From IMG/VR virus record IMGVR_UViG_3300042891_000530, positions 1-30,151 of that record: a stretch of 30,151 bases of DNA; one strand, written 5' to 3'. The stretch comes from a virus (taxonomy: Duplodnaviria > Caudoviricetes). The notes under the pieces were generated by a model, which was given only the letters and a program-made list of their open reading frames with translations, had not been told where the DNA came from and did no database searches. Each line of letters opens with the position of its first letter. Positions within the stretch are counted from its first letter, which is position 1. Below are positions 1 to 11,045 of this stretch, piece by piece. The translations under genes were made by a program, and so were the position numbers.

Positions 1-668
1 AGACGGCCATCCGCGCCGACGAAAACTTGCGCCGATGGCGCGGCTACTGGCGTAGCTGCGCACGTTTCGCCGTAACCGAACTTGCGCGACCCGTAGTACG
101 GGTTAGACCATCGGTCCATATAGTCCGGCAGGCTGTAGGTATTGGAGTACCACAGGCCGTCTATCCATTCGCCGGCATCCTCGTTAACGAGCGTAAACCG
201 GCCGGTATCCGCGTGCATGACTAGGAACTTGTTACCGTACCCGATCATGTCAGCGACCTTGCGCCAGTAATCGTAGTAGCCGCTGTCGGAATGGTCCGGC
301 GCAGATGGCAAGTATTGCTCACAAAAGAGCGCAGTGTCTGACAGTTCCTCTGTAGCTTCCGCAGCGGTAAGCGACAGTACACCGTTGTGCATCACGACCG
401 CGTCGGATGACGGCACAAAATGCGGATGTGTATTGCGGCGGCTGATACGGCCGTGCGTAGCGTAACGCCAGTGTACGCCGTATGGCTGGCCTGCATCCGC
501 CAGCGAACGCAGGTACCGTTTTGCACGCTTTTTGAACTTGCGGCCGATGAACTTCGCGACGCCGTCTAGCGACATGACGCCGATGCCATCCTCATTCTGC
601 GTAACGGCGGATTCGAAGACGTCGGCAGGGATTGCGCGTCCGGTAGGTGAGTAAGCGATCAAACACAT
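1..668 (-). CDS. Class II (Ntn) glutamine amidotransferase, 3' end runs off the window
   Basis: Not in the ORF track because it has no stop in the window. Manual translation MCLIAYSPTG...NEDGIG...VHWRYATHG...NTHPH...VMHNGVL...SDT shows the N-terminal Cys2 and the HxRxATHG, HP, HNG and SDT motifs of GATase-II. AGGA RBS upstream. Confidence 0.88.
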   Translation of the reverse strand, partial: MCLIAYSPTGRAIPADVFESAVTQNEDGIGVMSLDGVAKFIGRKFKKRAKRYLRSLADAGQPYGVHWRYATHGRISRRNTHPHFVPSSDAVVMHNGVLSLTAAEATEELSDTALFCEQYLPSAPDHSDSGYYDYWRKVADMIGYGNKFLVMHADTGRFTLVNEDAGEWIDGLWYSNTYSLPDYMDRWSNPYYGSRKFGYGETCAATPVAAPSAQVFVGADGR

Positions 669-702: not shown

Positions 703-2334
703 TTAGGCGTCGGTCAGCACGGCCAGCGGTTCGCCCTGGCGTCGCAGTACCTTATCTTGCAATTGGCGAAACCCGAAGACGCCACGCTCCGCAAGAAACC
801 GCACCAGCTGCGGATATTGCCCACGTTTGGCGATCAGCCAGCGCGAGAAGTTAGCCCACGACTCAACGTCACGCATGCTTACGTCGCGGCAGTACACGCA
901 AACGGCATGGACGAATTCAAGATTTTTCAACACTCGCTCGGGGCGCAAATTGCCTTTAAACAAGCGGAATTCCGCTGTCGGACGGCGAACGCCGACGTTC
1001 AGAATATCGTACCTGTCGTCGCTAAAGTATTTGCCGTCGCTAAGTTTCTTTGTCTTGCGCTTGCAATACGAGTTTTCCTGACGCTGCGCGACTGCGGTTA
1101 TGAGCGTGCGCAGTTCGGGCGAATTCATAAACACGAGCATTTTGCCGAGTTGTAGCGCCGTTAGCGCGCTGCGGTTTACATGAACATGCATACCGCAATT
1201 GTTAGTACCTGTGCCAGACATCGCGAGACGGTGCACGGCCGTGAGTCGCTGCCAGTTAAACTCTTTGCGATGTTGGTCAAGCGTAAACGGCATAGTACAA
1301 AGTTCTACGCCATAATCCAGCGATCCGTCATGCTTCAATATCGCGTTGTCGCAGACGTTACCGCCTAGTGCGTCGATAATCTCCCGTACTTGATCCTCGT
1401 TTTGGTCAACGGATTCCATCTCAAGTTCTACGCCCATCACTAGCGCATCGTGTGCGTTCGCCTTGTGCCATTTGAAATAGTCAAACGGGTTTGCGTTGTA
1501 GTCCAGCACGACGCTGTCGCCGCCGTAGTCGTCCGAATCCATTTCCGCCCGGTAGTCTTCTTCGGCGTGATCCCGTGCGGTTTCCGTTTCGTACAGGTGT
1601 CCGCGAGTGTCCATGTGCCAATGGTTACGCGCATACCCATTGCGAGCATACCGGCCTGTATCCTGTGCGCGCACGTGGTGCGCGGGCGCGAGCCGGATAC
1701 GTTCGCCAGTAATCAAGTTTATGTAGTTGTTATCGCAATGCCGACAAATGACCGTCGGTATAGCGTGCGGAGGCTCTACCCTGCGGAGGCTCAGCGGGTC
1801 GCCAATGTCGTGCGCGCGTTCGTCGCCGCCAGCAAGCGAATAGTGCATTGATCCGCAGTCACTGCACGCCGTGACGCTGTCAGCGTAGTTAGCGTCGAGC
1901 CATTGCGCCGCGAGCATGCCGTGCGCGACAGCGCAGCGGCGTACGGCAGTCGATTCTACGGCCTCGCTAACGCGCGCTCCGTTTACCCATTGGCGCGCGT
2001 CAGAGCGTGCGGCCTTGCGCGTCGCCAATGCGCGCAGTATCAACAAGTGCGAGTCCGTGTCATCGTGATCCGACAGCGCCCGCTCCCGGATGAACTGCGG
2101 AATAACGAGCGACCGCAGTAGCGCAGTCGGCGCGTCAGTCTCGTTATCAAACAGCGCGGCAAAGTCGTCCGACAGCGGATCAGACAATGCCGCGCAATCT
2201 GGGTTTGCATCGCGCAATGCGTCCACGAGTTGCGCGCATGACCATGCGAACCGCAGTTGCGTGCGTACGTAACTGCTAGTACCGCCATGCTCTACGAATG
2301 AATGCATAGCGGCTATGTGTTCCTGACTAAACAT
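703..2334 (-). CDS. Amidoligase (COOH-NH2 ligase, glutamine synthetase/glutamate-cysteine ligase-like fold) with N-terminal Zn-finger-like region
   Basis: Motifs GVELE, DGSL..GVE, CGMHVHV and EFR in the C-terminal half. CSDC and CRHC pairs upstream. GAGGA RBS. Adjacent to the GATase. Confidence 0.85.
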   Translation of the reverse strand: MFSQEHIAAMHSFVEHGGTSSYVRTQLRFAWSCAQLVDALRDANPDCAALSDPLSDDFAALFDNETDAPTALLRSLVIPQFIRERALSDHDDTDSHLLILRALATRKAARSDARQWVNGARVSEAVESTAVRRCAVAHGMLAAQWLDANYADSVTACSDCGSMHYSLAGGDERAHDIGDPLSLRRVEPPHAIPTVICRHCDNNYINLITGERIRLAPAHHVRAQDTGRYARNGYARNHWHMDTRGHLYETETARDHAEEDYRAEMDSDDYGGDSVVLDYNANPFDYFKWHKANAHDALVMGVELEMESVDQNEDQVREIIDALGGNVCDNAILKHDGSLDYGVELCTMPFTLDQHRKEFNWQRLTAVHRLAMSGTGTNNCGMHVHVNRSALTALQLGKMLVFMNSPELRTLITAVAQRQENSYCKRKTKKLSDGKYFSDDRYDILNVGVRRPTAEFRLFKGNLRPERVLKNLEFVHAVCVYCRDVSMRDVESWANFSRWLIAKRGQYPQLVRFLAERGVFGFRQLQDKVLRRQGEPLAVLTDA

Positions 2335-2346
2335 GCTTCGATCCTC

Positions 2347-2439
2347 TTACCGTGTGATGTAGAAACAAACGGACAACGCTAGCAAGCCTGACAGGCTCAC
2401 TAACGCAATGTAGCCCGGCACCAGTGACACGCGGGTCAC
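2347..2439 (-). CDS. Small hydrophobic (single TM) protein, about 30 aa
   Basis: GTG start overlaps the TGA of the upstream ORF (GTGA). Hydrophobic stretch YIALVSLSGLLALSVCFYI. Stop lies just before the amidoligase RBS. Confidence 0.45.
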   Translation of the reverse strand: MTRVSLVPGYIALVSLSGLLALSVCFYITR

Positions 2440-2648
2440 GCCGGCCCACTCGCGAGCCATTCGGCAGTCATGTGACGACGCGCTAGCGCAGCGTCGATAG
2501 CAAGGCCCGCTGTAATCCGTGACAGGCTCGCATCCTTGGCGTACTGCGTGATCGCTTGCTCGCGTGCGCTGCGCTCTGACAGCCCAAAGGTGCGGCATTC
2601 GTCAAACAGCGCGACCGCGTCGCGCAATGCGTTGCTAGGTATGCTCAT
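2436..2648 (-). CDS. Hypothetical early protein, about 70 aa (start re-assigned to MSIPSN)
   Basis: First ORF downstream of the leftward promoter. Helical-looking sequence, coupled to the next ORF. Confidence 0.55.
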   Translation of the reverse strand: MSIPSNALRDAVALFDECRTFGLSERSAREQAITQYAKDASLSRITAGLAIDAALARRHMTAEWLASGPA

Positions 2649-2689
2649 TGTGGGGCTACTCACTACCCGGCCGAATTGACCGTGCGTGC

Positions 2690-2717
2690 ATTCTCTTATG
2701 GTCCGGCATGCTGTCAA
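2690..2717 (-). promoter_or_regulatory. Leftward sigma70-like promoter
   Basis: Minus strand TTGACA-N16-GAGAAT, about 40 bp upstream of the 2648 ATG. Confidence 0.5.
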
Positions 2718-2749
2718 GCATGCATCGCACAGCATGACCACGTAGCGGA

Positions 2750-2880
2750 TGGCATGCTAATTGCCTAGCAATACCCATGCCGCAAGGCATGGCACAGACA
2801 TTGCATACCCATGCATACGCCATGCCATGACGCAATGCACCATGTTGTGCAACGCACCATGCTATGCATACCCCGCGCCA
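2750..2880. promoter_or_regulatory. Cluster of five sigma54 (RpoN) -24/-12 elements in both orientations
   Basis: Plus strand: TGGCATGCTAATTGCC 2750-2765 and TGGCACAGACATTGCA 2790-2805. Minus strand: CGGCATGGGTATTGCT 2767-2782, TGGCATGGCGTATGCA 2812-2827 and TGGCGCGGGGTATGCA 2865-2880. All have exact GG-N10-GC spacing. Confidence 0.72.
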
Positions 2881-2940
2881 TGTGCCATAATGCATGACTA
2901 GGATGCGGGTTATGACGTATATGAAGATGTCACATAGACT

Positions 2941-3062
2941 CGCACCATTTTGGTGCATTAACATAATGCATTGCCTGTTATGTTCATTTGACATAATGGA
3001 CACGAGCATAATCTATGCACCAATTCGGTGCATTTGACATAATCATGCACCATTCTGGTGCA
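2941..3062. promoter_or_regulatory. Three NtrC-type boxes (TGCACC-N5-GGTGCA)
   Basis: CGCACCATTTTGGTGCA 2941-2957, TGCACCAATTCGGTGCA 3016-3032 and TGCACCATTCTGGTGCA 3046-3062. Confidence 0.72.
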
Positions 3063-3072
3063 TTGAACATAA
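2956..3072. repeat. Repeated XerD-arm-like half sites (ATTTRACATAA); includes a 30-bp tandem duplication at 3015-3074
   Basis: ATTTGACATAA 2986-2996 and 3032-3042, ATTGAACATAA 3062-3072, CATTAACATAA 2956-2966 and inverted TTATGTTCATT 2978-2988. The E. coli dif XerD arm is TTATGTTAAAT. Confidence 0.55.
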
Positions 3073-3401
3073 TCGAGCCAGGTTATGGTAACATAGGGGG
3101 TATCCTCCTAATTGGGAACATTGATTTTGCTCCATGTGAGCTCACACGCGAGAAGTGAAAAACTGGAAAGTACAGGGTTTGCTGTTGCTAAAAAGCAACA
3201 GTATGTCATTGTTTCACAAGTGAAAAAGTGAAAATGATCGGTTTTACCTGTTCGCAAGCAGCTGGACGCTAGTCCAGGTAGCTGCGAAGCGAACTACGAG
3301 GCTCTATTGGCTGACTAAAGTAGGAAGGGGATGTAGGGGATGGTATCCCCTACGAGGCCGTAGGCCGTATCTAGCGTCCGCAGGACGATATTCTGTCAGA
3401 A

Positions 3402-3443
3402 GTGTAACAAAACGATGAAAAGTACTGATAACCGAGTAAGAGA
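3402..3443 (+). promoter_or_regulatory. Rightward promoter repeat, copy 1
   Basis: GTGTAACAAAACG-N12-GATAACCGAGTAAGAGA; contains GTAACA-N17-GATAAC. Confidence 0.55.
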
Positions 3444-3511
3444 CCACGAGTTTTCGTGGTTTATGGCTAAGTCTCGTGACACAGAGCAGCGTAGCTGCGT
3501 ATTCTGTTAAA

Positions 3512-3524
3512 AATCAGTCACTTA
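3512..3524 (+). promoter_or_regulatory. IHF consensus match
   Basis: AATCAGTCACTTA fits WATCAR-N4-TTR and lies between the two promoter repeats in an AT-rich context. Confidence 0.4.
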
Positions 3525-3554
3525 GCTTAAATCACGAATTATTTTTTACGTTTT

Positions 3555-3596
3555 GTGTGACAAAACGTAGCTTTTACTCGATAACAGAGTAAGAGA
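3555..3596 (+). promoter_or_regulatory. Rightward promoter repeat, copy 2
   Basis: GTGTGACAAAACG-N12-GATAACAGAGTAAGAGA; contains GTGACA-N17-GATAAC. The -35 lies inside palindrome 3547-3569. Confidence 0.55.
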
Positions 3597-3712
3597 TTAG
3601 AATAATATTACATGAAATTTATGTAATATCATGCATTTTGACAGCTTTGCTGTCTCATTCTGCCCTTCCCTTTGGGAAGGATGCAAGGAAACCCTTTACG
3701 GCAGGAGAGGCC

Positions 3713-3931
3713 ATGAGGTTCGAGGTTCAGCCCAACACTGCGGGTAACCAGTTTGCTGTCTACGCCAAGGCGGAAAAGCCTAACGCCGATGGCAAGTTCG
3801 AGCAGTCCCGGATGGGGGCTTTCGCTACGCGGCCCCCAGCAGACGAGCTAGCAGCTATTCTGTCCTACGCCGACCAGCTATACCAACTTGCGAAGCGCAA
3901 CGCTTACGGGGTCCCGCGACCCCGAGTCTAA
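3713..3931 (+). CDS. Hypothetical protein, 72 aa (start re-assigned to MRFEVQ)
   Basis: AGGAGAGG RBS just before ATG 3713; first ORF after the rightward promoters. Confidence 0.65.
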   Translation: MRFEVQPNTAGNQFAVYAKAEKPNADGKFEQSRMGAFATRPPADELAAILSYADQLYQLAKRNAYGVPRPRV

Positions 3932-3966
3932 CTTGAGACCCGGCTACTGCCGGGGGGACGAACCAA

Positions 3967-4164
3967 ATGGCCGATCAGAGAACCGACGATGACAACAGCA
4001 AGGCTGGCGATCCCAATGCGACAGGTCGCGGTGACGCTAAGCCTGTGCGCGATGTCCGTGCTGGCAGCAGTGTCGGCGGGACCGCTATGTGGGACCAGCC
4101 CTACAAGGATCAGTACAAGGATGCTGGTGTTTACCCCAGCTACCTGTCGGTGATCCGCCCGTAA
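3967..4164 (+). CDS. Hypothetical protein, 65 aa
   Basis: GGGGGA RBS; phage-like codon usage. Confidence 0.55.
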   Translation: MADQRTDDDNSKAGDPNATGRGDAKPVRDVRAGSSVGGTAMWDQPYKDQYKDAGVYPSYLSVIRP

Positions 4165-4171
4165 CCGGGGC

Positions 4172-4200
4172 TTGACATGCACGCCCAGGCGTGCTAGAGT
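4172..4200 (+). promoter_or_regulatory. Strong sigma70 promoter of the tRNA array
   Basis: TTGACA-N17-TAGAGT with extended -10 TG; 11 nt before tRNA-His. Confidence 0.8.
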
Positions 4201-4211
4201 TCAGTTTCTGC

Positions 4212-4284
4212 GGTGGTCGGGTGTTAGTACGCAGCATCGGCCGTGACCCGATCCTACTGGGAGCAAAACCCAGCGATCACCCCA
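4212..4284 (+). tRNA. tRNA-His(GTG)
   Basis: G-1:C73 8-bp acceptor, ATCGG-CCGTGAC-CCGAT anticodon arm, T-loop AGCAAAA, CCA. Confidence 0.85.
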
Positions 4285-4290
4285 AATTTC

Positions 4291-4376
4291 GTGTCGTTAG
4301 CCAGGGACGGACCCTGACCAGGCTGTAAATCTGGTGCCTTATGGCCTGCTTGGTTCGACTCCAAGACGATGCACCA
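4291..4376 (+). tRNA. tRNA-Tyr(GTA)
   Basis: CCAGG-CTGTAAA-TCTGG, long variable arm, TTCGA T-loop, ACCA. Confidence 0.9.
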
Positions 4377-4382
4377 AACAAT

Positions 4383-4452
4383 GGGTTGTGCTCAGGGAGC
4401 AGCGGAGCCTCCAAATCTCTGCAGCAAGGTTCGAGTCCTTGACAATCTGCCA
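4383..4452 (+). tRNA. tRNA-Trp(CCA), compact D-arm
   Basis: Loop CTCCAAA, CAAGG-TTCGAGT-CCTTG, GCCA. Confidence 0.8.
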
Positions 4453-4467
4453 ACTCAGTGCTACTAT

Positions 4468-4543
4468 TGATCTGTGGGTTGCTGGTATCCCAGTGACGCT
4501 CTGAACGTCGCCCACGCAGGTTCGATCCCTGCCGGATCATCCA
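4468..4543 (+). tRNA. tRNA-Gln(CTG)
   Basis: TGATCTG/CGGATCA acceptor, TGACG-CTCTGAA-CGTCG, TCCA. Confidence 0.9.
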
Positions 4544-4614
4544 AGCGCAGGCTTTTCGGTTCGCCCTCCATTGTCCTACGGGGCCGTGGTCACTAAAAGA
4601 ACCGTACGTCTTCT

Positions 4615-4703
4615 GGATGGTTATGCAGGCTGGGCCTGCCACGGTCTTGAAAACCGATGGAGTCCTCCGGGGCTTGGAGTTCGATTCTATCAGCCATCCG
4701 CCA
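4615..4703 (+). tRNA. tRNA-Ser(TGA)
   Basis: GGATGGT/GCCATCC, loop CTTGAAA, long variable arm, GCCA. Confidence 0.9.
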
Positions 4704-4707
4704 TTTT

Positions 4708-4782
4708 GGGCCTTCCGGGAGTTAGTCCCGGACTGCTGCGAGGGCAGCAGAAAGCGTTAGCCAGCATGCTTCCGGCCCGCCA
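4708..4782 (+). ncRNA. tRNA-sized four-way-junction RNA ending in GCCA, no anticodon loop
   Basis: GGGCC/GGCCC-G-CCA closing three hairpins: TCCGGGA/TCCCGGA, CTGCTGC/GCAGCAG and AAGCGT/ATGCTT. Confidence 0.65.
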
Positions 4783-4786
4783 TTTT

Positions 4787-4862
4787 ACGCCTATAGCTCA
4801 GAGAACAGAGCAGAGGGCTTCTACCCCTCAGTGCGTGGGTTTGAATCCTACTAGGCGTGCCA
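4787..4862 (+). tRNA. tRNA-Arg(TCT)
   Basis: GAGGG-CTTCTAC-CCCTC, T-loop TTTGAAT, GCCA. Confidence 0.9.
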
Positions 4863-4867
4863 TTTAT

Positions 4868-4943
4868 GCCCATTGCCCGAGGGAATTCGGGAGCGACGCT
4901 ACGAACGTCGACTGCGTAGGCTCGACTCCTACAGTGGGTGCCA
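4868..4943 (+). tRNA. tRNA-Arg(ACG)
   Basis: CGACG-CTACGAA-CGTCG, GTAGG-CTCGACT-CCTAC, GCCA. Confidence 0.85.
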
Positions 4944-4947
4944 ATTC

Positions 4948-5022
4948 GCGGCTTTAGCTGAGACAGATTAGCGGCTGGCTGAAAACCAGCAAAGCTAGGT
5001 GCGATACCTAGAGGCTGCACCA
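4948..5022 (+). tRNA. tRNA-Phe(GAA)
   Basis: GCTGG-CTGAAAA-CCAGC, T-loop TGCGATA, ACCA. Confidence 0.9.
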
Positions 5023-5027
5023 ATATT

Positions 5028-5104
5028 CGGCCCAGGAGGTTACTAGACAGCCTACCTGGCTCTTACCCAGTGATGTCTGAGTGCGAGACTCAGTGGGCCG
5101 ACCA
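5028..5104 (+). tRNA. tRNA-Lys(CTT)
   Basis: CGGCCCA/TGGGCCG, loop CTCTTAC, T-loop TGCGAGA, ACCA. Confidence 0.85.
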
Positions 5105-5108
5105 ATTT

Positions 5109-5201
5109 AGTCCTGTGGTGTAAAGCAGCACGGACGGACTTATAAGCCGTATTCCGCCAGATTAGCGGGCAGTCTCGGTGCGAGTCCGAGCAGGACGACC
5201 A
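5109..5201 (+). tRNA. tRNA-Ile(TAT) with long variable arm
   Basis: GTCCTG/CAGGAC acceptor, loop CTTATAA, V-arm TCCGC-CAGATTA-GCGGG, T-loop TGCGAGT, ACCA. Confidence 0.8.
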
Positions 5202-5207
5202 GACAAT

Positions 5208-5282
5208 GGTTCGTGATGCGACTGGTGTCGCAGGAAAGCTGTCTACTTTCTGAGACGAGTTCAATTCTCGTACGAATCGCCA
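5208..5282 (+). tRNA. tRNA-Asp(GTC)
   Basis: GAAAG-CTGTCTA-CTTTC, TTCAA T-loop, GCCA. Confidence 0.9.
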
Positions 5283-5286
5283 ATGT

Positions 5287-5362
5287 AGGCCCTTAACTCA
5301 GCGGGACAGAGACTCGCCTTTTAAGCGAAGTGATGTCGGTTCGATTCCGACAGGGCCAACCA
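5287..5362 (+). tRNA. tRNA-Lys(TTT)
   Basis: TCGC-CTTTTAA-GCGA, GTCGG-TTCGATT-CCGAC, ACCA. Confidence 0.88.
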
Positions 5363-5368
5363 GACTAT

Positions 5369-5442
5369 GCACCGTTGCGTCCGGTGACGCATGTGGGCTT
5401 TCAACCCACAATAGATCGGATCGACACCGATACGGTGTGCCA
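5369..5442 (+). tRNA. tRNA-Glu(TTC)
   Basis: GTGGG-CTTTCAA-CCCAC, T-loop ATCGACA, GCCA. Confidence 0.88.
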
Positions 5443-5447
5443 ATTAC

Positions 5448-5522
5448 GGGCTGTGGGCAGGGCACCCAGGCAATCCTTGCAAGATTGCAGCTTGGTGAGT
5501 TCGAGTCTCACACGGTCCACCA
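5448..5522 (+). tRNA. tRNA-Ala(TGC)
   Basis: G3:U70 identity pair, CAATC-CTTGCAA-GATTG, ACCA. Confidence 0.9.
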
Positions 5523-5587
5523 GAAACACACCCGGCCACGCCTCTACCGCAGGGCGGATATGCGCATCAGGGCCGGGTCTTTCACCA
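5523..5587 (+). ncRNA. Small structured RNA ending in ACCA, not a cloverleaf
   Basis: GAAA..ACCCGGCC pairs with GGCCGGGT.TTTC followed by ACCA; two small internal hairpins. Confidence 0.5.
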
Positions 5588-5599
5588 GTTAATGAATAT

Positions 5600-5673
5600 C
5601 ACGCAGTGGCCGAATGGCTAGGCACTGGATTGCAACCCCAGTCATGCAGGTCCGACCCCTGTCTGCGTGTCCA
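5600..5673 (+). tRNA. tRNA-Cys(GCA)
   Basis: CACGCAG/CTGCGTG, loop TTGCAAC, U73, CCA. Confidence 0.88.
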
Positions 5674-5679
5674 CTTTAT

Positions 5680-5763
5680 GCCCTGCTGGTGGAACAGCAG
5701 ACACACTGCGCTTAGAACGCAGCGACGCAAGTCGTACAGGTGCAACTCCTGTGCAGGGTACCA
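5680..5763 (+). tRNA. tRNA-Leu(TAG)
   Basis: CTGCG-CTTAGAA-CGCAG, V-arm CGAC-GCAA-GTCG, T-loop TGCAACT, ACCA. Confidence 0.9.
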
Positions 5764-5767
5764 ATTT

Positions 5768-5844
5768 CGACGTGTGATGGGAATAGCAGACCTCCCTAGC
5801 TCAAACCTAGGGGCTTGTAGGTGCAACTCCTACCATGTCGACCA
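5768..5844 (+). tRNA. tRNA-Leu(CAA), short variable loop
   Basis: CCTAG-CTCAAAC-CTAGG, T-loop TGCAACT, ACCA. Confidence 0.85.
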
Positions 5845-5850
5845 CTTTAT

Positions 5851-5927
5851 AGCGGAATGTGCGAAGATGGATTCGCTCCGGGCTCATAACCCGGCCAAGG
5901 CTGGATCGTTACCAGCTTCCGCTACCA
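5851..5927 (+). tRNA. tRNA-Met(CAT), initiator-like
   Basis: CCGGG-CTCATAA-CCCGG (three consecutive G-C pairs), xGCGG acceptor with weak A1:U72, ACCA. Confidence 0.88.
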
Positions 5928-5930
5928 AAC

Positions 5931-6043
5931 TAGGGCCGAGTCAGGCGAAAGCCCAACCAACGCCCGAGGTCCGCCGTAGTCACGAGGCGCTAATCGGGAC
6001 TTTGAATTGCGAGACGAGTCGCTTGCCCCAGGCAGCGCCCCTA
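5931..6043 (+). ncRNA. Putative multibranched structured RNA
   Basis: TAGGG/CCCTA closing stem, GGC-GAAA-GCC GNRA hairpin, CCCGA/TCGGG enclosing CGCC/GGCG, and GCGA/TCGC and TGCC/GGCA hairpins. Confidence 0.45.
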
Positions 6044-6058
6044 CATGCTCCAATCGCC

Positions 6059-6112
6059 CGGGCAGGTGTGGCGTAATATCCCTGCGCATGGGCATGCGTT
6101 AAATGCCCGCCA
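6059..6112 (+). ncRNA. Small structured RNA ending in GCCA
   Basis: GGGCA/TGCCC-G-CCA terminal stem with internal GCGCAT/ATGCGT hairpin; ends 1 nt before tRNA-Pro. Confidence 0.45.
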
Positions 6113-6113
6113 T

Positions 6114-6190
6114 CAGCCTGTTACGAGAAAGGGCAATCGTCCTGGCTTGGAACCAGGTACATGCAGGTTCGAGTCCTGCCGGGCTGACCA
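6114..6190 (+). tRNA. tRNA-Pro(TGG)
   Basis: C1:G72, CCTGG-CTTGGAA-CCAGG, ACCA. Confidence 0.9.
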
Positions 6191-6197
6191 ATTCAAC

Positions 6198-6272
6198 ACC
6201 AGTGTAGCTCAAGTAGAAGAGCGCTCGGCTGATAACCGAGGGATGCAGGGGCAGTTCCTGACTCTGGTACCA
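6198..6272 (+). tRNA. tRNA-Ile(GAT)
   Basis: CTCGG-CTGATAA-CCGAG, atypical T-loop GGCAGTT, ACCA. Confidence 0.85.
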
Positions 6273-6277
6273 CTTTC

Positions 6278-6354
6278 GCCCCCTAAGCATTGATAGCGAT
6301 GCAGCCGCCTTGTAAGCGGCAGACGGCCCGTGCAAGTCGAGGCAGGCGGCACCA
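6278..6354 (+). tRNA. tRNA-Thr(TGT)
   Basis: GCCGC-CTTGTAA-GCGGC, T-loop TGCAAGT, ACCA. Confidence 0.85.
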
Positions 6355-6359
6355 ATCAT

Positions 6360-6447
6360 GGATGGCTAACCCAGCAGGGCTGGGAGCCGGTTGCTAACCG
6401 AACTGGACCCTTCGGGGTCTGTGTTTCGAGTACACAGCCATCCGCCA
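6360..6447 (+). tRNA. tRNA-Ser(GCT)
   Basis: GGATGGC/GCCATCC, loop TTGCTAA, long V-arm with TTCG loop, GCCA. Confidence 0.88.
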
Positions 6448-6453
6448 CTTGTC

Positions 6454-6526
6454 GCGGGTACGCACGAGGCGTGCCGCCAGGTTTCCACCCTGTGCAGAGA
6501 GGGTTCGATTCCCTCTATCCGCTCCA
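6454..6526 (+). tRNA. tRNA-Gly(TCC)
   Basis: GCGGGTA/TATCCGC, loop TTTCCAC, U73, CCA. Confidence 0.88.
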
Positions 6527-6573
6527 TTACGCAGTGTAGTACGTATTTTTGAAATACGCACTAAATGCTGTAT

Positions 6574-6644
6574 GCCTTGGCCGTTGGACGGCAGCGGCTC
6601 TTACAAGGCTGCATGAGTCAGTTCGATCCTGACACAGGGTACCA
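6574..6644 (+). tRNA. tRNA-Val(TAC), compact D-arm
   Basis: CGGCT-CTTACAA-GGCTG, TTCGA T-loop, ACCA. Confidence 0.78.
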
Positions 6645-6648
6645 CTTT

Positions 6649-6722
6649 TGATCCTTCGTCTAATAGTAGGACGCCAGGCTTTGACCCTGGGAATCTACGT
6701 GCGAGTCGTAGAGGATCATCCA
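6649..6722 (+). tRNA. tRNA-Gln(TTG)
   Basis: TGATCCT/AGGATCA, CCAGG-CTTTGAC-CCTGG, T-loop TGCGAGT, TCCA. Confidence 0.9.
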
Positions 6723-6728
6723 TCTTAT

Positions 6729-6803
6729 TGTCATGAACGCACAAGGTGTGCGGCTCCGCTGTTAACGGATGCGAGCTAGGTTCGATTCCTAGCGTGACAG
6801 CCA
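6729..6803 (+). tRNA. tRNA-Asn(GTT)
   Basis: TGTCATG/CGTGACA, loop CTGTTAA, GCCA. Confidence 0.9.
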
Positions 6804-6807
6804 ATTC

Positions 6808-6880
6808 GCGGAGTTGGTCAAGGCGACCGGCATCGTTGCCAACGAGGCATAGACGGGTTCGATTCCCGTATTCCGCTCCA
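6808..6880 (+). tRNA. tRNA-Gly(GCC)
   Basis: GCGGAGT/ATTCCGC, loop TTGCCAA, U73, CCA. Confidence 0.88.
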
Positions 6881-6897
6881 CTAATAGGTAGTACCGC

Positions 6898-7074
6898 ATG
6901 TTTGACGTTCTTGCTGCGGCAACGCTCGTAGTTGTAACTGTCGCCACGACGCTAGGCGTCCAGTGGTTGATTAACCGGCAGCGCGAGAAGTCGCCAGCTG
7001 CCAAGGCTGCGCGAATGCTCAAGGAGCAGCGCCAGGCCCTGCGCGACGCGGTTAAGCCGTATCGGCTTGCCTAA
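6898..7074 (+). CDS. Small N-terminal TM protein, 58 aa (not in ORF track)
   Basis: MFDVLAAATLVVVTVATTLGVQWLINRQREK...; TAATG overlap with the next gene. Confidence 0.6.
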   Translation: MFDVLAAATLVVVTVATTLGVQWLINRQREKSPAAKAARMLKEQRQALRDAVKPYRLA

Positions 7075-7427
7075 TGGGGCTTCCTACTGCGGTTACATAC
7101 GGAGACACAACGTACCCACTCGTCGGCGTGCCTATCGACACGACCGGATCGGGTGATTTCACGCTTGTGCCTGCGGAAGCGGGCAAGGTCATCAAGATGT
7201 GGCGCGTGTTCGTCGTAGCAACTGTTGCTACCGAATTCCGCTGGAAGTCTGGTGCTGCCAACTCGCTATCAGGCAACCTGCCCATTCCGTCAGGTGCCGC
7301 GTTTGTGCTGGACGTAGGGCAGGCTCCGTGGTTTACCACGCTGCCAGGCGAGGCTTTGGTGCTTAACAACGCCACTGCAAGCGACCTAAACGGTATGCTA
7401 GCGTACACTGTCGAGCCGGCCTACTAA
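7074..7427 (+). CDS. Hypothetical beta-rich protein, probably virion-associated
   Basis: TAATG coupling at both ends; Thr/Val/Gly-rich. Confidence 0.7.
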   Translation: MGLPTAVTYGDTTYPLVGVPIDTTGSGDFTLVPAEAGKVIKMWRVFVVATVATEFRWKSGAANSLSGNLPIPSGAAFVLDVGQAPWFTTLPGEALVLNNATASDLNGMLAYTVEPAY

Positions 7428-8083: not shown

Positions 8084-8889
8084 TGGCTGTACTTATTGAC
8101 CCGCGTGGTAATCCCTTTGTAGGGTCGATTGACACGATAACGGGCGAAACGGTCACCGACGGCCGCCCGATCAGCGCGGTTCTAGGTGCGCTGAACGCCG
8201 AAACCTTGATGGACGTACAGGGCAAGCTCACTGCCGCGTTTGACGTTCGTACAGCTGCCGGCGCGCTTACGTACGTGGCGGAAGGTACCGTCGACGGTAC
8301 CAACTACTTTGCCATTCCGATGTGGGCCAACTTCCAGCTGCTGGCCGCTGCAGCGGTAGCCGAACAGTACGTCGGGCAGGTTGTAGTAGCAACTACGCAC
8401 TCCGGGTACTACACGGTAGACTGCGCAGGCCTGCGCCGCGTCCGCCTTCGTGTCTCGGCTTACACGTCTGGCAACATCACGGTTTCTAGCCGCGCAACAG
8501 TCGCGGACAAGATCCTCTACGGACGCCAGATTCCTGCCACGCTTCACGTTACAGCTACAGGTGCGGCCAACACTGCCGTAACAGCTACGCTGCCAGCAGC
8601 CGGCCCTAGCCTGTTTCACTACATCACGTCTATCGAAATCACGCGAAACGCCACAGCCGCGCTAGCTGGTACGGCCACGCTGATCCACACGTCGACTAAC
8701 CTTCCTGGCTCCCCTGCGTGGTCTGTTGGCAACAACATTATCGCGGGCGGAACGGAACGAGACGTAAACTACACGCCTACCGCACCGCTCAAGTCTCTTG
8801 CAGCCAACACCGCCACAACAATCGTGGCGGCTGCTGCGGGCGCGGCGGTTCTAAGCCGCGTGAACGTGTCGTACTACGTTGGCGCGTAA
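8083..8889 (+). CDS. Hypothetical beta-sandwich structural/decoration protein
   Basis: TAATG coupling; Ala/Thr-rich, with EGTVDGTNY and RVRLRVSAYTSG segments. Confidence 0.7.
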   Translation: MAVLIDPRGNPFVGSIDTITGETVTDGRPISAVLGALNAETLMDVQGKLTAAFDVRTAAGALTYVAEGTVDGTNYFAIPMWANFQLLAAAAVAEQYVGQVVVATTHSGYYTVDCAGLRRVRLRVSAYTSGNITVSSRATVADKILYGRQIPATLHVTATGAANTAVTATLPAAGPSLFHYITSIEITRNATAALAGTATLIHTSTNLPGSPAWSVGNNIIAGGTERDVNYTPTAPLKSLAANTATTIVAAAAGAAVLSRVNVSYYVGA

Positions 8890-9304
8890 TTCAAAGGCTG
8901 CGAAAGCCGCACAGGCTGCAGCCGTAGAGGCACCCCGCCCGGCTGTGCGTAACGAGGCTGGGCAGTTCGTGCAAGGCGTGTCGGGTAACCCGCACGGCCG
9001 AGGGAAGGGCGTTAAGAACGCCATTACTGCCCACAAGCAGGAACTGGAACTCGCCGTACGTCAGAGCATGACGGTCGGCAAGATCACACGGATCGTAGAC
9101 AAGCTCGTAGAGCTTGCGGAAGAGGGGAGCGTCCCTGCCGCCAAGCTGCTGCTCGATAAGTGCGTCTCGAACGCACGCGACTCGGACGAAGTCGACAGTG
9201 GGGAGGGAGGCGTGACAATCGTCATCAAGAACGCCACGTTTGCAGCCGGCAAACAGCCGTCAATCATTGAGGCCGAAGAGGCCGAATTCACAGAGGTTAA
9301 GTAA
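8879..9304 (+). CDS. terS: Terminase small subunit (DUF5681-like)
   Basis: GQFVQGVSGNPHGR motif and A..G...AAKLLLDK helix; upstream of TerL. TTG start is uncertain. Confidence 0.7.
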   Translation: MARNSKAAKAAQAAAVEAPRPAVRNEAGQFVQGVSGNPHGRGKGVKNAITAHKQELELAVRQSMTVGKITRIVDKLVELAEEGSVPAAKLLLDKCVSNARDSDEVDSGEGGVTIVIKNATFAAGKQPSIIEAEEAEFTEVK

Positions 9305-9472
9305 ATGTCAACAGGCGCAGTACCAAGCAACCAGACGCGCACACAGGACTCGTCAGGCGGTAACGTCGTAGGCAAGGCTCCTTCTGGCCGTCTCCACCAG
9401 CCGCCCGCCTTCCTAGGCAAGACCGGCCAGTCCGACAACCAGACAACGTCGCGCCCCAAGGGTAGCACCTAA
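9305..9472 (+). CDS. Small low-complexity protein, 55 aa (not in ORF track)
   Basis: GAGG RBS, ATG directly after the terS stop, TAATG overlap with the next gene. Confidence 0.55.
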   Translation: MSTGAVPSNQTRTQDSSGGNVVGKAPSGRLHQPPAFLGKTGQSDNQTTSRPKGST

Positions 9473-9672
9473 TGGCTGACAAGCCAAAGCCGCGCTACCG
9501 TCGAGAAGTGTCCCCTGGCATCACAGGGGCACTCAAGGACGCGGGCAACGCTATCATTGACGCTACCGCGCCCCGCGCTGTGCGGCAGCGCCAGCGACGC
9601 TTGGAGCAGGAAATCAACGACATGAGCAGCGGCCGACAGCGGCAGAGCACAGACGCGGCTAACGGCTACTAG
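9472..9672 (+). CDS. Hypothetical protein, 66 aa
   Basis: Translationally coupled; lies between terS and terL. Confidence 0.6.
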   Translation: MADKPKPRYRREVSPGITGALKDAGNAIIDATAPRAVRQRQRRLEQEINDMSSGRQRQSTDAANGY

Positions 9673-9707
9673 GCTGTTAGTCGTGTCTTGTCGTTTAGGG
9701 GAGCTAA

Positions 9708-11045
9708 ATGACAGCCCGTACGTTCGAGATTAGCCTGCATCCTGGGCAGGCGGCTGTGTACAACAGCCCCGCCAGATTCAAGGTAGTAGCGGCCGGTCGC
9801 CGCTTCGGTAAGAGTCACTACGCCGCCGTTGTGCTTGGCATTGAGGCCATGCGCAACCGCAACGAAGCCGGCTACTCACTCACGCCGGAGCACGGCGTGT
9901 ACTACATCGCGCCAACCTTTGACCAGGCGAAGCGCGTCATGTGGCCCAAGCTGCGAGCGATCCTAGGATACGCCTCGCGTGGCGGCTACATCGTAAACGA
10001 AAACACCAACGACGGCTGGATCGAAGTCGTAGGTGGTCGCCGCATCTACATTAAGGGTGCGGACAACCCAGACAGTCTGCGAGGTATCGCGCTGTCGTAT
10101 GTCGTACTCGACGAGTACGCCGACATGAAGGCGAACGTATGGGAAGAGATTATCGACCCTGCGCTCATCGACGTCGAAGGTTCCGCCCTATTCATCGGAA
10201 CGCCGAAGGGCAAAAACCACTTCTACAAGCTGTTTATGGGTGCGCTAGAGAAGCCTATCAACGGGCAGACTGGCGATAACAGCAATTGGGCAGATTGGGA
10301 GGCGTTTCACTTCCAGTCATTCGACAATCCTTTTCTAAGCGAAAAGGAAAAGAAGCGCATGCTGACTGGCGGCAACAAGAGCCGCGAAGTCATCAAGCAG
10401 GAAATCGAGGCCAGCTTCATCAGCGGAGGCCAGAAGGTCCTAAAAGCCGAATGGTTCCCGATCATACCTGGCATCGGCAGCTTTAACGAGGGCAGCATCT
10501 ACATTACGGTAGACTTGGCTGGCTTCTCGAAGGAAGCCGGCAACAAGATACTGCGTACCGACGAGACGGCTATCTGTACTACGTACGTGACGCCTGACCA
10601 CTGGAACGTACTGGACATTGTGCATGGACGCTGGGACGTCCGCGAGACCGCCCTGCAGATCGTGCTAGCGTGCCGCAAGTACTCAGGCGCACGCCTGGGC
10701 ATTGAGTCTGGCGCGCTCAAGAACGCTGTAGGTCCGTACCTCGAAGACTACATGCGAGAGTACCAGCGCTACATCAACGTCGAGCCGCTGATGCACAATC
10801 AGCAGAAGAAGACTGATCGTATAGCCTGGGCGCTGCAAGGTCGCGCCGAACGCCAGCGCATCCGGCTGGTAAAGGGCGACTGGAACAGCTGGTTCCTGGA
10901 TCAGGCTGCGGACTTTCCAGACCCGCTTGCTCACGACGACGGTCTTGACGCTTTGGCGTACACAGACCAAATGGCTACCGTCTCGTACATGGACGAGAGC
11001 GAAATCACCGAATGGCAACCGCTTGACCTGGAATCTGGATACTAA
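9708..11045 (+). CDS. terL: Terminase large subunit
   Basis: Walker A AGRRFGKS, Walker B VVLDE, coupling motif GTP, nuclease VDLA and HDDGLDA. Confidence 0.96.
   Translation: MTARTFEISLHPGQAAVYNSPARFKVVAAGRRFGKSHYAAVVLGIEAMRNRNEAGYSLTPEHGVYYIAPTFDQAKRVMWPKLRAILGYASRGGYIVNENTNDGWIEVVGGRRIYIKGADNPDSLRGIALSYVVLDEYADMKANVWEEIIDPALIDVEGSALFIGTPKGKNHFYKLFMGALEKPINGQTGDNSNWADWEAFHFQSFDNPFLSEKEKKRMLTGGNKSREVIKQEIEASFISGGQKVLKAEWFPIIPGIGSFNEGSIYITVDLAGFSKEAGNKILRTDETAICTTYVTPDHWNVLDIVHGRWDVRETALQIVLACRKYSGARLGIESGALKNAVGPYLEDYMREYQRYINVEPLMHNQQKKTDRIAWALQGRAERQRIRLVKGDWNSWFLDQAADFPDPLAHDDGLDALAYTDQMATVSYMDESEITEWQPLDLESGY

Follow-up and report, generated by a model that had tools for sequence, protein, structure and literature searches.

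The locus analyzed here raises the question of why a phage should keep sites for three unrelated host proteins (sigma54, NtrC, and XerD) close together in the non-coding gap between its early and late genes. The window, i.e., the whole stretch of DNA under analysis (30,151 bp), derives from an uncultured podovirus-like phage of lake-water metagenomes, and with a 43,269-bp contig from this phage the map could be closed at 43,112 bp. The left arm is transcribed leftwards from 2648 and encodes an amidoligase, a likely glutamine amidotransferase, a sigma70-type factor, primase, helicase, PolA, and a 5'-3' exonuclease. The right arm, transcribed rightwards, carries 17 tRNAs and the terminase, portal, capsid, tail, and lysis genes. 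The replication genes are T7-like, and no RNA polymerase was matched among 23 proteins scanned.

Judged by sequence comparison, this phage has no close cultured relative, and its layout is similar to those of LUZ24 and the Zobellviridae. The best cultured matches reached 34-37% identity over about half of the protein for TerL, 27% for the portal, and 29-31% for the capsid, and a DNA search of 2300-4200 against cultured phages returned two chance matches only. The original comparison with LUZ24/PaP3-type genomes does not hold at the sequence level, as LUZ24 and PaP3 are absent among the TerL, portal, and capsid matches listed. The phage resembles Bruynoghevirus (LUZ24/PaP3) in having two convergent arms, an amidoligase/amidotransferase pair, T7-like replication genes, and no RNA polymerase, but close terminase, portal, or capsid proteins are not shared, and LUZ24 itself has no such array in its whole genome. 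As for the host, a betaproteobacterium would fit both the XerD variant described below and the lake habitat. The putative amidotransferase had PHROGs matches of unknown function only, and PADLOC gave zero matches among 11 small proteins. Rfam detected nothing but tRNAs over 2300-7100, and a structured RNA was rejected; one extra tRNA was found at 6198-6269, and a match to the tRNA-Sec model at 4615-4699, exactly at the gathering score, is probably a Ser tRNA.

Composition and spacing of the array

Sigma54 elements were searched as TGGCAC-N5-TTGC and NtrC boxes as TGCACCA-N3-TGGTGCA, strings that we take to be the consensus forms, and XerD arms were searched as TTATGTTAAAT. The XerD string was checked against Table 1 of PMC2731167 and the DnaA box against bioRxiv 10.1101/866236. 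All of the motifs originally listed are present between 2750 and 3072, namely five sigma54 elements, three NtrC boxes, and five XerD arms (Table 1). Compared with 2000 dinucleotide shuffles of 2740-3095, the real sequence has 8 strict matches against a mean of 0.17 and a maximum of 3; none of the 2000 shuffles attained the NtrC or XerD count, and 22 attained the sigma54 count. The description of the region as almost fully tiled was overstated: motifs occupy 174 of 356 bases (219 if loose XerD matches are included), and they are not intermingled, forming a sigma54 block at 2750-2880 and an NtrC/XerD block at 2927-3093. ORFs overlapping the array are short and have no coding support.

Table 1. 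Coordinates of sites and genes in the window (mismatches refer to the search strings)
Feature	Position	Strand	Basis or remark
Likely glutamine amidotransferase, truncated by window edge	3..668	-	N-terminal Met-Cys; amidoligase/amidotransferase pair also in MEP402 and LUZ24 records
Amidoligase, first large early gene	703..2334	-	PF12224, phrog_2443
Sigma70-like promoter of leftward (early) unit, inside array	2690..2717	-	TTGACA-16-GAGAAT, 10/12; consensus match only
Sigma54 -24/-12 element, towards genome end	2750..2764	+	1 mismatch
Sigma54 element, towards early genes, facing the 2750 element (offset 18)	2768..2782	-	2 mismatches
Perfect sigma54 element, towards genome end, back to back with 2768 (offset 22)	2790..2804	+	0 mismatches
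Sigma54 element, towards early genes	2813..2827	-	2 mismatches; exact TGGCAY-N5-WTGC
Sigma54 element, towards early genes, polymorphic	2866..2880	-	2 mismatches
NtrC box	2941..2957	.	1 mismatch
Three XerD arms (2956-, 2978+, 2986-), without XerC arm	2956..2996	.	2986-, 1 mismatch; 2956- and 2978+, 2 mismatches
Tandem 30-bp unit, two copies of an NtrC box (3016, 3046) joined to an XerD arm (3032-, 3062-)	3015..3074	.	
NtrC box	3016	.	1 mismatch
XerD arms	3032, 3062	-	1 mismatch each
NtrC box	3046	.	0 mismatches
G-run, about 45 bp, then CAC and A-rich tail; candidate terminase cut/recognition site	3096..3170	+	Aligned in 35 relatives
17 tRNA genes, cluster opening late unit	4291..6880	+	ARAGORN
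Likely small terminase (DUF5681) and large terminase	8879..11045	+	DUF5681 domain for small terminase

The elements at 2790 and 2750 are the only sigma54 matches with zero or one mismatch in the 30-kb window. Matches with two mismatches are common (44 in the window); the elements of the array keep GG and GC at fixed spacing, together with the extended consensus. The element at 2866 carries two linked population variants, at 2876 and 2879, and each allele is one step off the consensus at a different position. The three NtrC boxes are the sole matches in the window at up to three mismatches, and the arms 2986-, 3032-, and 3062- are the only three XerD matches with one mismatch. The tandem duplication originally noted (3015-3044 and 3045-3074) is real, its copies being 83% identical. 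The exact fused NtrC-XerD unit was found in IMG/VR in only two contigs, both of this phage, and a loose NtrC+XerD pattern gave 19 loci, none of which besides this phage has a comparable array. A weak NtrC-like palindrome and two overlapping PhaR-like words were also observed at 2836-2860, between the fourth and fifth sigma54 elements. No DnaA box was found in the window.

There is no XerC arm in the region, and the XerD arms are thus half-sites rather than parts of dif. XerD-only sites are known to unload SMC in Bacillus, which offers a parallel. A dif site was considered and rejected, given that an XerD arm is present without an inverted XerC arm across a 6-bp centre. Bacterial dif/XerCD sites (Carnoy and Roten 2009, PMC2731167) share the XerD arm, including the variant TTATGTCAAAT, which is identical to the Burkholderia dif XerD arm in Table 1 of that paper; here, however, inverted arms lie 10-11 bp apart and do not form a recombination site. 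The same phage has a second cluster of 5-6 XerD-arm-like TTATG units with a period of 15-16 bp (contig L534, 998-1092), about 540-630 bp past the left edge of the window and about 3.7 kb from the predicted early end. This cluster contains a PhaR-like word, is flanked by two sigma70-like promoters, and lies upstream of the gene for the phage sigma factor. The sigma70-type factor itself is encoded at 1245-1907 of that contig (PF04542). A similar TTATG cluster plus a perfect sigma54 element was seen in another locus (L052, 1346-1475).

Positions that had not been part of the search also fit the sigma54 consensus, with G at +6 in 74%, a purine at +7 in 85%, and A/T at +15 in 86% of 34 elements. 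Among 189 same-direction sigma54 pairs, 76% are at half-turn phase, compared with 48% for a uniform distribution and 40% for bacterial pairs, in a sample that includes related, and hence only partly independent, phages and that was confined by the search pattern to spacings of 20-50 bp; drawing one pair per locus gave 73-82%. Spacings of same-direction pairs peak at 25-29 and 33-41 bp, with three pairs at 30-32 and none at 42-44. Half-turn spacing places bulky neighbours on opposite faces of the DNA and therefore fits simultaneous binding. Face-to-face pairs peak at offsets of 18-22, so that each start site falls within the partner element, and back-to-back pairs peak at 22-25. The offsets in the window (18, 22, 23, and 53) belong to this set, and the offset of 18 between 2750 and 2768 is typical of such arrays, the largest of which has 21 elements. 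NtrC boxes in relatives are 20-22 or 28-31 bp apart, i.e., whole turns, as for cooperative binding.

Bacterial NtrC/sigma54 promoters of the glnAp2 type have one element pointing at a gene. The array shares with them the exact -24/-12 consensus and NtrC boxes at whole turns 95-200 bp upstream of an inward element, but differs in having five elements in both directions and face to face, and most arrays lack NtrC boxes. Two face-to-face pairs are found in the window instead of a single-element promoter with a free start site. The claim that the array goes beyond the needs of a promoter is supported in that its spacing fits simultaneous occupancy better than promoter use, but a promoter/enhancer geometry, overlooked in the original reading, does exist, with NtrC boxes about 95-200 bp upstream of the 2866 element.

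Probable position of the genome ends

The original prediction had put the genome end at this site between divergent early and late units, and indirect evidence makes this the most likely position. Contig ends, rather than reads, suggest a direct terminal repeat of about 211 bp (2923..3133). In eight sequencing runs, of which two may be the window's own source, a left end falls exactly at 2923 in three runs and a right end at 3133 in two. These are the only coincident contig ends among those listed: 3 of 23 left ends listed are at 2923 (chance about 3e-4), and 2 of 25 right ends listed are at 3133 (chance 0.11 anywhere and 0.002 within 3100-3145), an edge confounded by a SNP at 3135, only 2 bp away. 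No variant is known at 2922, and no 15-mer is repeated within 2700-3300. Other contigs run straight through 2923 and 3133, as expected for a repeat or a concatemer.

The G-run/CAC module offers a second way of placing the end. In the deposited repeats of ICBM1, VpV262, LUZ24, and phiEco32, the outer edge at the early end is 0-13 bp before a CAC/TAC word; on this basis, the early-end terminus is predicted 0-13 bp before CACAC at 3143, i.e., at about 3130-3142. The terminal repeats of ICBM1 were mapped by PacBio, and the 5' part of cobavirus terminal repeats is described as G+C-rich (PMC6775973). The module is also found beside sigma54 arrays that had not been used as seeds, and it can be used for placing genome ends in phages of this family. 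In relatives, contigs start unusually often in the 300 bp to the left of the G-run (8 starts versus 7 in the next 1200 bp, p 0.004), a result given little weight because G-runs and repeats break assemblies. A sequencing adapter assembled into a contig was noted near the left end of one locus (L523).

The inferred 211-bp repeat holds the entire NtrC/XerD block and the G-run, and the NtrC/XerD block would thus be present at both genome ends; the sigma54 block lies 43-173 bp inward of the repeat. Host-factor sites are one-sided with respect to the module. The counts on its early and late sides are 14 and 0 for sigma54, 8 and 0 for NtrC, 9 and 2 for XerD, and 12 and 1 for DnaA, in the 21 of 49 gaps that a regular expression could anchor, a small number of these anchors being probably in error. 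Fur boxes were observed late of the G-run, upstream of the late sigma70 promoter, in six loci (L192, L194, L220, L522, L155, and L157), where iron control of late genes is possible. The late-side part of the gap in the window also contains AT-rich perfect-like inverted repeats (3602-3632 and 3180-3203).

Recurrence in relatives and in unrelated phages

Loci of relatives were collected through the similarity of their terminases. The first set comprised 29 early/late gaps (the window and 28 relatives, 38 kb); compared with 100 shuffles, it contained 27 sigma54 matches in 13 gaps (shuffle mean 2.7, maximum 10), 9 NtrC matches in 5 gaps (0.2), 15 XerD arms in 8 (1.8), 29 DnaA boxes in 10 (0.7), 17 Fur boxes in 8 (0.3), and 13 PhaR-like words in 4 (0.7), where palindromic Fur and PhaR matches can count twice. 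LexA (4 in 3 gaps) and CRP (6 in 5 gaps) were also enriched, and XerC (1 match in the 29 gaps, 0.7 expected), FNR, and matS were not. This set had been hand-picked after some arrays were seen, and DnaA, Fur, LexA, CRP, and PhaR were added after sighting; a second set was therefore defined blind. It comprised 63 new loci, of which 28 were redundant and 15 had no usable gap, leaving 20 gaps. Sigma54 (7 in 3 gaps; shuffle 0.88), NtrC (5 in 2; 0.07), DnaA (11 in 4; 0.47), Fur (4 in 2; 0.17), and PhaR-like words (2 in 1 gap) were replicated. XerD, LexA, and CRP had zero matches in these 20 gaps and were not replicated, FNR, matS, and XerC were again not enriched, and spacing controls were flat. The expectation that the same motifs would be enriched near the ends of relatives is thus borne out for the type of array, which recurs, but not for every relative or motif, since 11 of the 20 blind gaps are without any enriched motif and XerD was not replicated. 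Arrays are common in relatives and not universal, and their content differs from phage to phage.

Runs of NtrC boxes in L151, L517, and L522 are not accompanied by a good sigma54 element. The 12 closest relatives show the XerD-like arms most clearly, with TTATG extending as T-n-A-A-A-T above background, and XerD arms occur without XerC arms in relatives as well as in unrelated phages. Five gaps of phages with distant terminases gave zero strict matches.

Beyond the family, a tandem sigma54 pattern was detected in about 1200 IMG/VR stretches (estimated from 7 of 64 parts), and a control pattern with one extra base between the boxes in 18. The tandem sigma54 pattern itself was found about 430 times in a 596-Gb prokaryote collection. 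None of 75 dereplicated viral loci lies inside genes, and 36 are between divergent genes, compared with 25 of 80 bacterial loci inside genes. A terminase gene is present within 6 kb in 41 of the 75 sigma54-selected loci, comprising 20 loci of this family and 21 of 46 others (61 of 110 listed proteins given). About 140 stretches, an uncontrolled count, matched a tandem XerD-arm pattern; 74 of 79 examined are non-coding, and only 4 are near a terminase like that of this phage. Long XerD-arm arrays without XerC arms were seen in unrelated viral contigs (L546, L563, L567, L577, L589, and L612); several of them have perfect arms beside G-runs, and in L612 and L563 the arms are fused to sigma54 elements, comparable to the NtrC-XerD fusion in this phage. 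The same kind of array is therefore shared by relatives and unrelated phages.

Among the 17 records of cultured phages that were checked, an array is present in only one. This is Vibrio phage VpV262 (Zobellviridae; NC_003907, L318), whose sigma54 array at 173-346 is unannotated in the record; all four genome-wide sigma54 matches (six if two mismatches are allowed) are 35-208 bp inward of the repeat. Its early end resembles that of our phage in having four to six sigma54 elements in both directions inward of a mapped 138-bp repeat, but it has no NtrC or XerD block, and its terminase is not close. No array was found in the whole genomes of LUZ24 and MEP402, in the whole records of RIO-1, CW02, ICP2, CVT22, Neko, Kuura, Tiera, HMO-2011, and CRP-1 (sigma54 only), or in the end stretches of ICBM1, phiEco32, nickie, T7, and PaP3, where the PaP3 stretch may miss the gap. 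The T7 record (V01146) shows the leftward host promoter A0 at 224, an outward-facing site for host polymerase at a comparable place.

What the array might do

Because the sites are real, keep a fixed position while changing identity, and are spaced for dense occupancy, they point to host proteins acting as bulk at the DNA ends. The purpose of this bulk may be shielding. Our preferred reading, which we hold tentatively, is that host proteins serve as a structural cap for the phage ends: the sites would recruit sigma54-RNA polymerase, NtrC, and XerD of the host, and these proteins would form a bulky cover likely to shield free ends from end-loading nucleases and sensors before phage gene expression. 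The proteins would act by bulk, and any abundant tight binder with a conserved site would suffice. The early end would enter the cell first; NtrC and XerD would sit at both ends, and the sigma54 holoenzyme additionally at the first-injected early end only. A broader version, in which many unrelated tailed phages possess a telomere-like cap built from interchangeable host-protein sites (sigma54, NtrC, XerD, DnaA, Fur, and LexA), is more doubtful. There, sites phased for dense co-occupancy would guard the end at once without any phage protein, leaving no mark of phage end-binding proteins for defences such as Gabija. Phage-made end-binding proteins are reported to sensitise phages to Gabija (bioRxiv 10.1101/2025.08.30.673261), which is a possible reason for borrowing host proteins.

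Evidence in favor of a structural cap includes interchangeable motif content at one place and on one side of the G-run module, half-turn packing, the outward direction of the best elements, runs of NtrC boxes alone, XerD arms without XerC, the frequency of tandem sigma54 elements in viral stretches and their absence from genes in the 75 loci, and the placement of all four VpV262 matches just inward of a mapped repeat. RecBCD strips bound proteins in vitro, which counts against such a cap, as does the absence of a host site from the last 40 bp before the predicted end, where a nuclease could still load. Pure bulk would not need the bias of 26 of 34 sigma54 elements towards the early genes, nor does it account for the second XerD-arm cluster about 3.7 kb inside or the Fur boxes near the late promoter, and 11 of 20 blind relatives and 16 of the 17 cultured records have no array. 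In E. coli, sigma54 binding is stable and transcriptionally inactive at most sites, which favors a cap, but RNAP-sigma54 was no roadblock to a transcribing polymerase, which counts against one (PMC4591121). The functions of cap, regulation, packaging, entry, and decoy need not exclude each other.

An alternative that we regard as rather unlikely, yet as the strongest competitor, is control of early transcription by host state: the NtrC boxes would be enhancers for the inward sigma54 elements, and genes for entry would follow nitrogen status. In relatives, Fur, LexA, CRP, PhaR, and DnaA sites would report other host states, a form of lytic deferment as described for CtrA. The geometry is suitable, since NtrC boxes precede the predicted start of the 2866 element by about 95, 170, and 200 bp, with 30-bp spacing at whole turns, and the same NtrC/sigma54 order is seen in L080, L155, and L064. 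The bias towards early genes would also be expected, most factors are global physiological regulators, and CtrA sites are reported to cluster in phage gaps or terminal repeats and to regulate transcription (PMC9437464). However, the two best elements of the window (2750 and 2790) point outward to the genome end, face-to-face pairs would block each other's start sites, and arrays of up to 9-21 elements are found. Of the first 80 loci selected by sigma54, just two, including that of this phage, have an NtrC box within 500 bp. A sigma70-like promoter is located inside the array, XerD arms are no sensor, NtrC-only and XerD-only arrays are unaccounted for, and the common allele at 2879 loses the G of the -24 box.

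Less probable is a role at the concatemer junction, where bound host proteins would mark the cut that initiates packaging or form a barrier limiting resection and strand displacement. A paused T7 RNA polymerase marks the T7 concatemer junction, and this phage has T7-like replication genes with no RNA polymerase match. The sigma54 block begins 43 bp inward of the inner repeat edge here and 35 bp inward in VpV262, arrays end abruptly at the G-run module, and a terminase is often nearby (41 of the 75 loci). On the other hand, this nearness follows from end position alone, the T7 mechanism needs specific protein contacts that interchangeable factors cannot supply, and many relatives, as well as LUZ24, ICBM1, and RIO-1, package without such sites.

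It is improbable that the array works as an entry ratchet or brake, in which proteins bound to the first DNA to enter would keep it from sliding back or halt injection for a time, and the internal cluster would provide another stopping point. The pressure in the capsid peaks while the first few hundred bases are injected, so that a ratchet is least needed at the leading end. The sites are on the first-entering side, relatives have DnaA boxes, and XerD-arm clusters are found 3.7-4 kb in; the window itself has zero DnaA boxes. In phage T5, the injection stop has 7-8 DnaA boxes (Davison, bioRxiv 10.1101/866236), a model that is itself a proposal. T5 is similar in that host-protein sites in non-coding terminal-repeat DNA are proposed to act physically on entry, but its sites are about 9.3-9.6 kb in, at the pause point, compared with 40-400 bp from the predicted end here; the paired DnaA boxes in inverted repeats typical of T5 were not found, the internal cluster consisting of XerD-like arms.

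More improbable still is a decoy, in which replicated genomes would titrate sigma54, NtrC, or XerD from host sites, e.g., to blunt sigma54-dependent stress responses. Strong sites at high copy, spaced for co-occupancy, are in line with this idea, and hundreds of phage copies would compete with the 135 sigma54 sites mapped in E. coli (PMC4591121), but it leaves the fixed position at the terminus module and the one-sidedness unexplained. Finally, that the motifs are sites of phage proteins, hairpin-forming sequence, or chance can be nearly dismissed: the strand folds better than shuffles (z -3.0) because the sites are palindromic, and many TTATG repeats are degenerate, some in relatives being plain start codons (L035, 4319), but unsearched positions match the sigma54 consensus, spacing controls are not enriched, and perfect TTATGTTAAAT copies in tandem were seen in unrelated phages.

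Survival of the leading linear end in the face of host nucleases, before phage gene expression, is a question in its own right for phages with short terminal repeats. A host-made end cap would, if shown, be categorically new, and sequence-encoded, protein-free recruitment of host proteins would, if true, represent a new counter-defence. Should the sites serve to sense host state, lytic deferment would no longer be limited to CtrA but would include signals of nitrogen, iron, and damage. In both cases, the arrays are common and help to place genome ends and hosts of metagenomic phages, and VpV262 is a cultured phage in which an array can be tested.

Precedents with a single factor are known from CtrA arrays (PMC9437464) and the T5 DnaA boxes (bioRxiv 10.1101/866236). 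In the literature searched, with incomplete coverage of subscription papers, no description of sigma54, NtrC, or XerD half-site arrays at phage ends was found. What is new is that array content is interchangeable among members of one family, that spacing follows half turns, that the arrays are tied to a terminus module, and that a cultured phage can serve as a test case. CtrA arrays of pili- and flagellotropic alphaproteobacterial phages (Mascolo et al. 2022, PMC9437464) are similar in placing dense host-factor sites in a gap or terminal repeat, and they arose in several phage lineages. They involve one factor, for which binding and promoter control were shown, whereas this phage and its relatives carry predicted sites of several unrelated and interchangeable factors, including sigma54 elements and recombinase half-sites, packed against a terminus module. 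In the terminal repeat of ICBM1 (L317, 50-130), repeated TGT-N10/12-ACA words were also observed, which are possibly sites of an alphaproteobacterial regulator.
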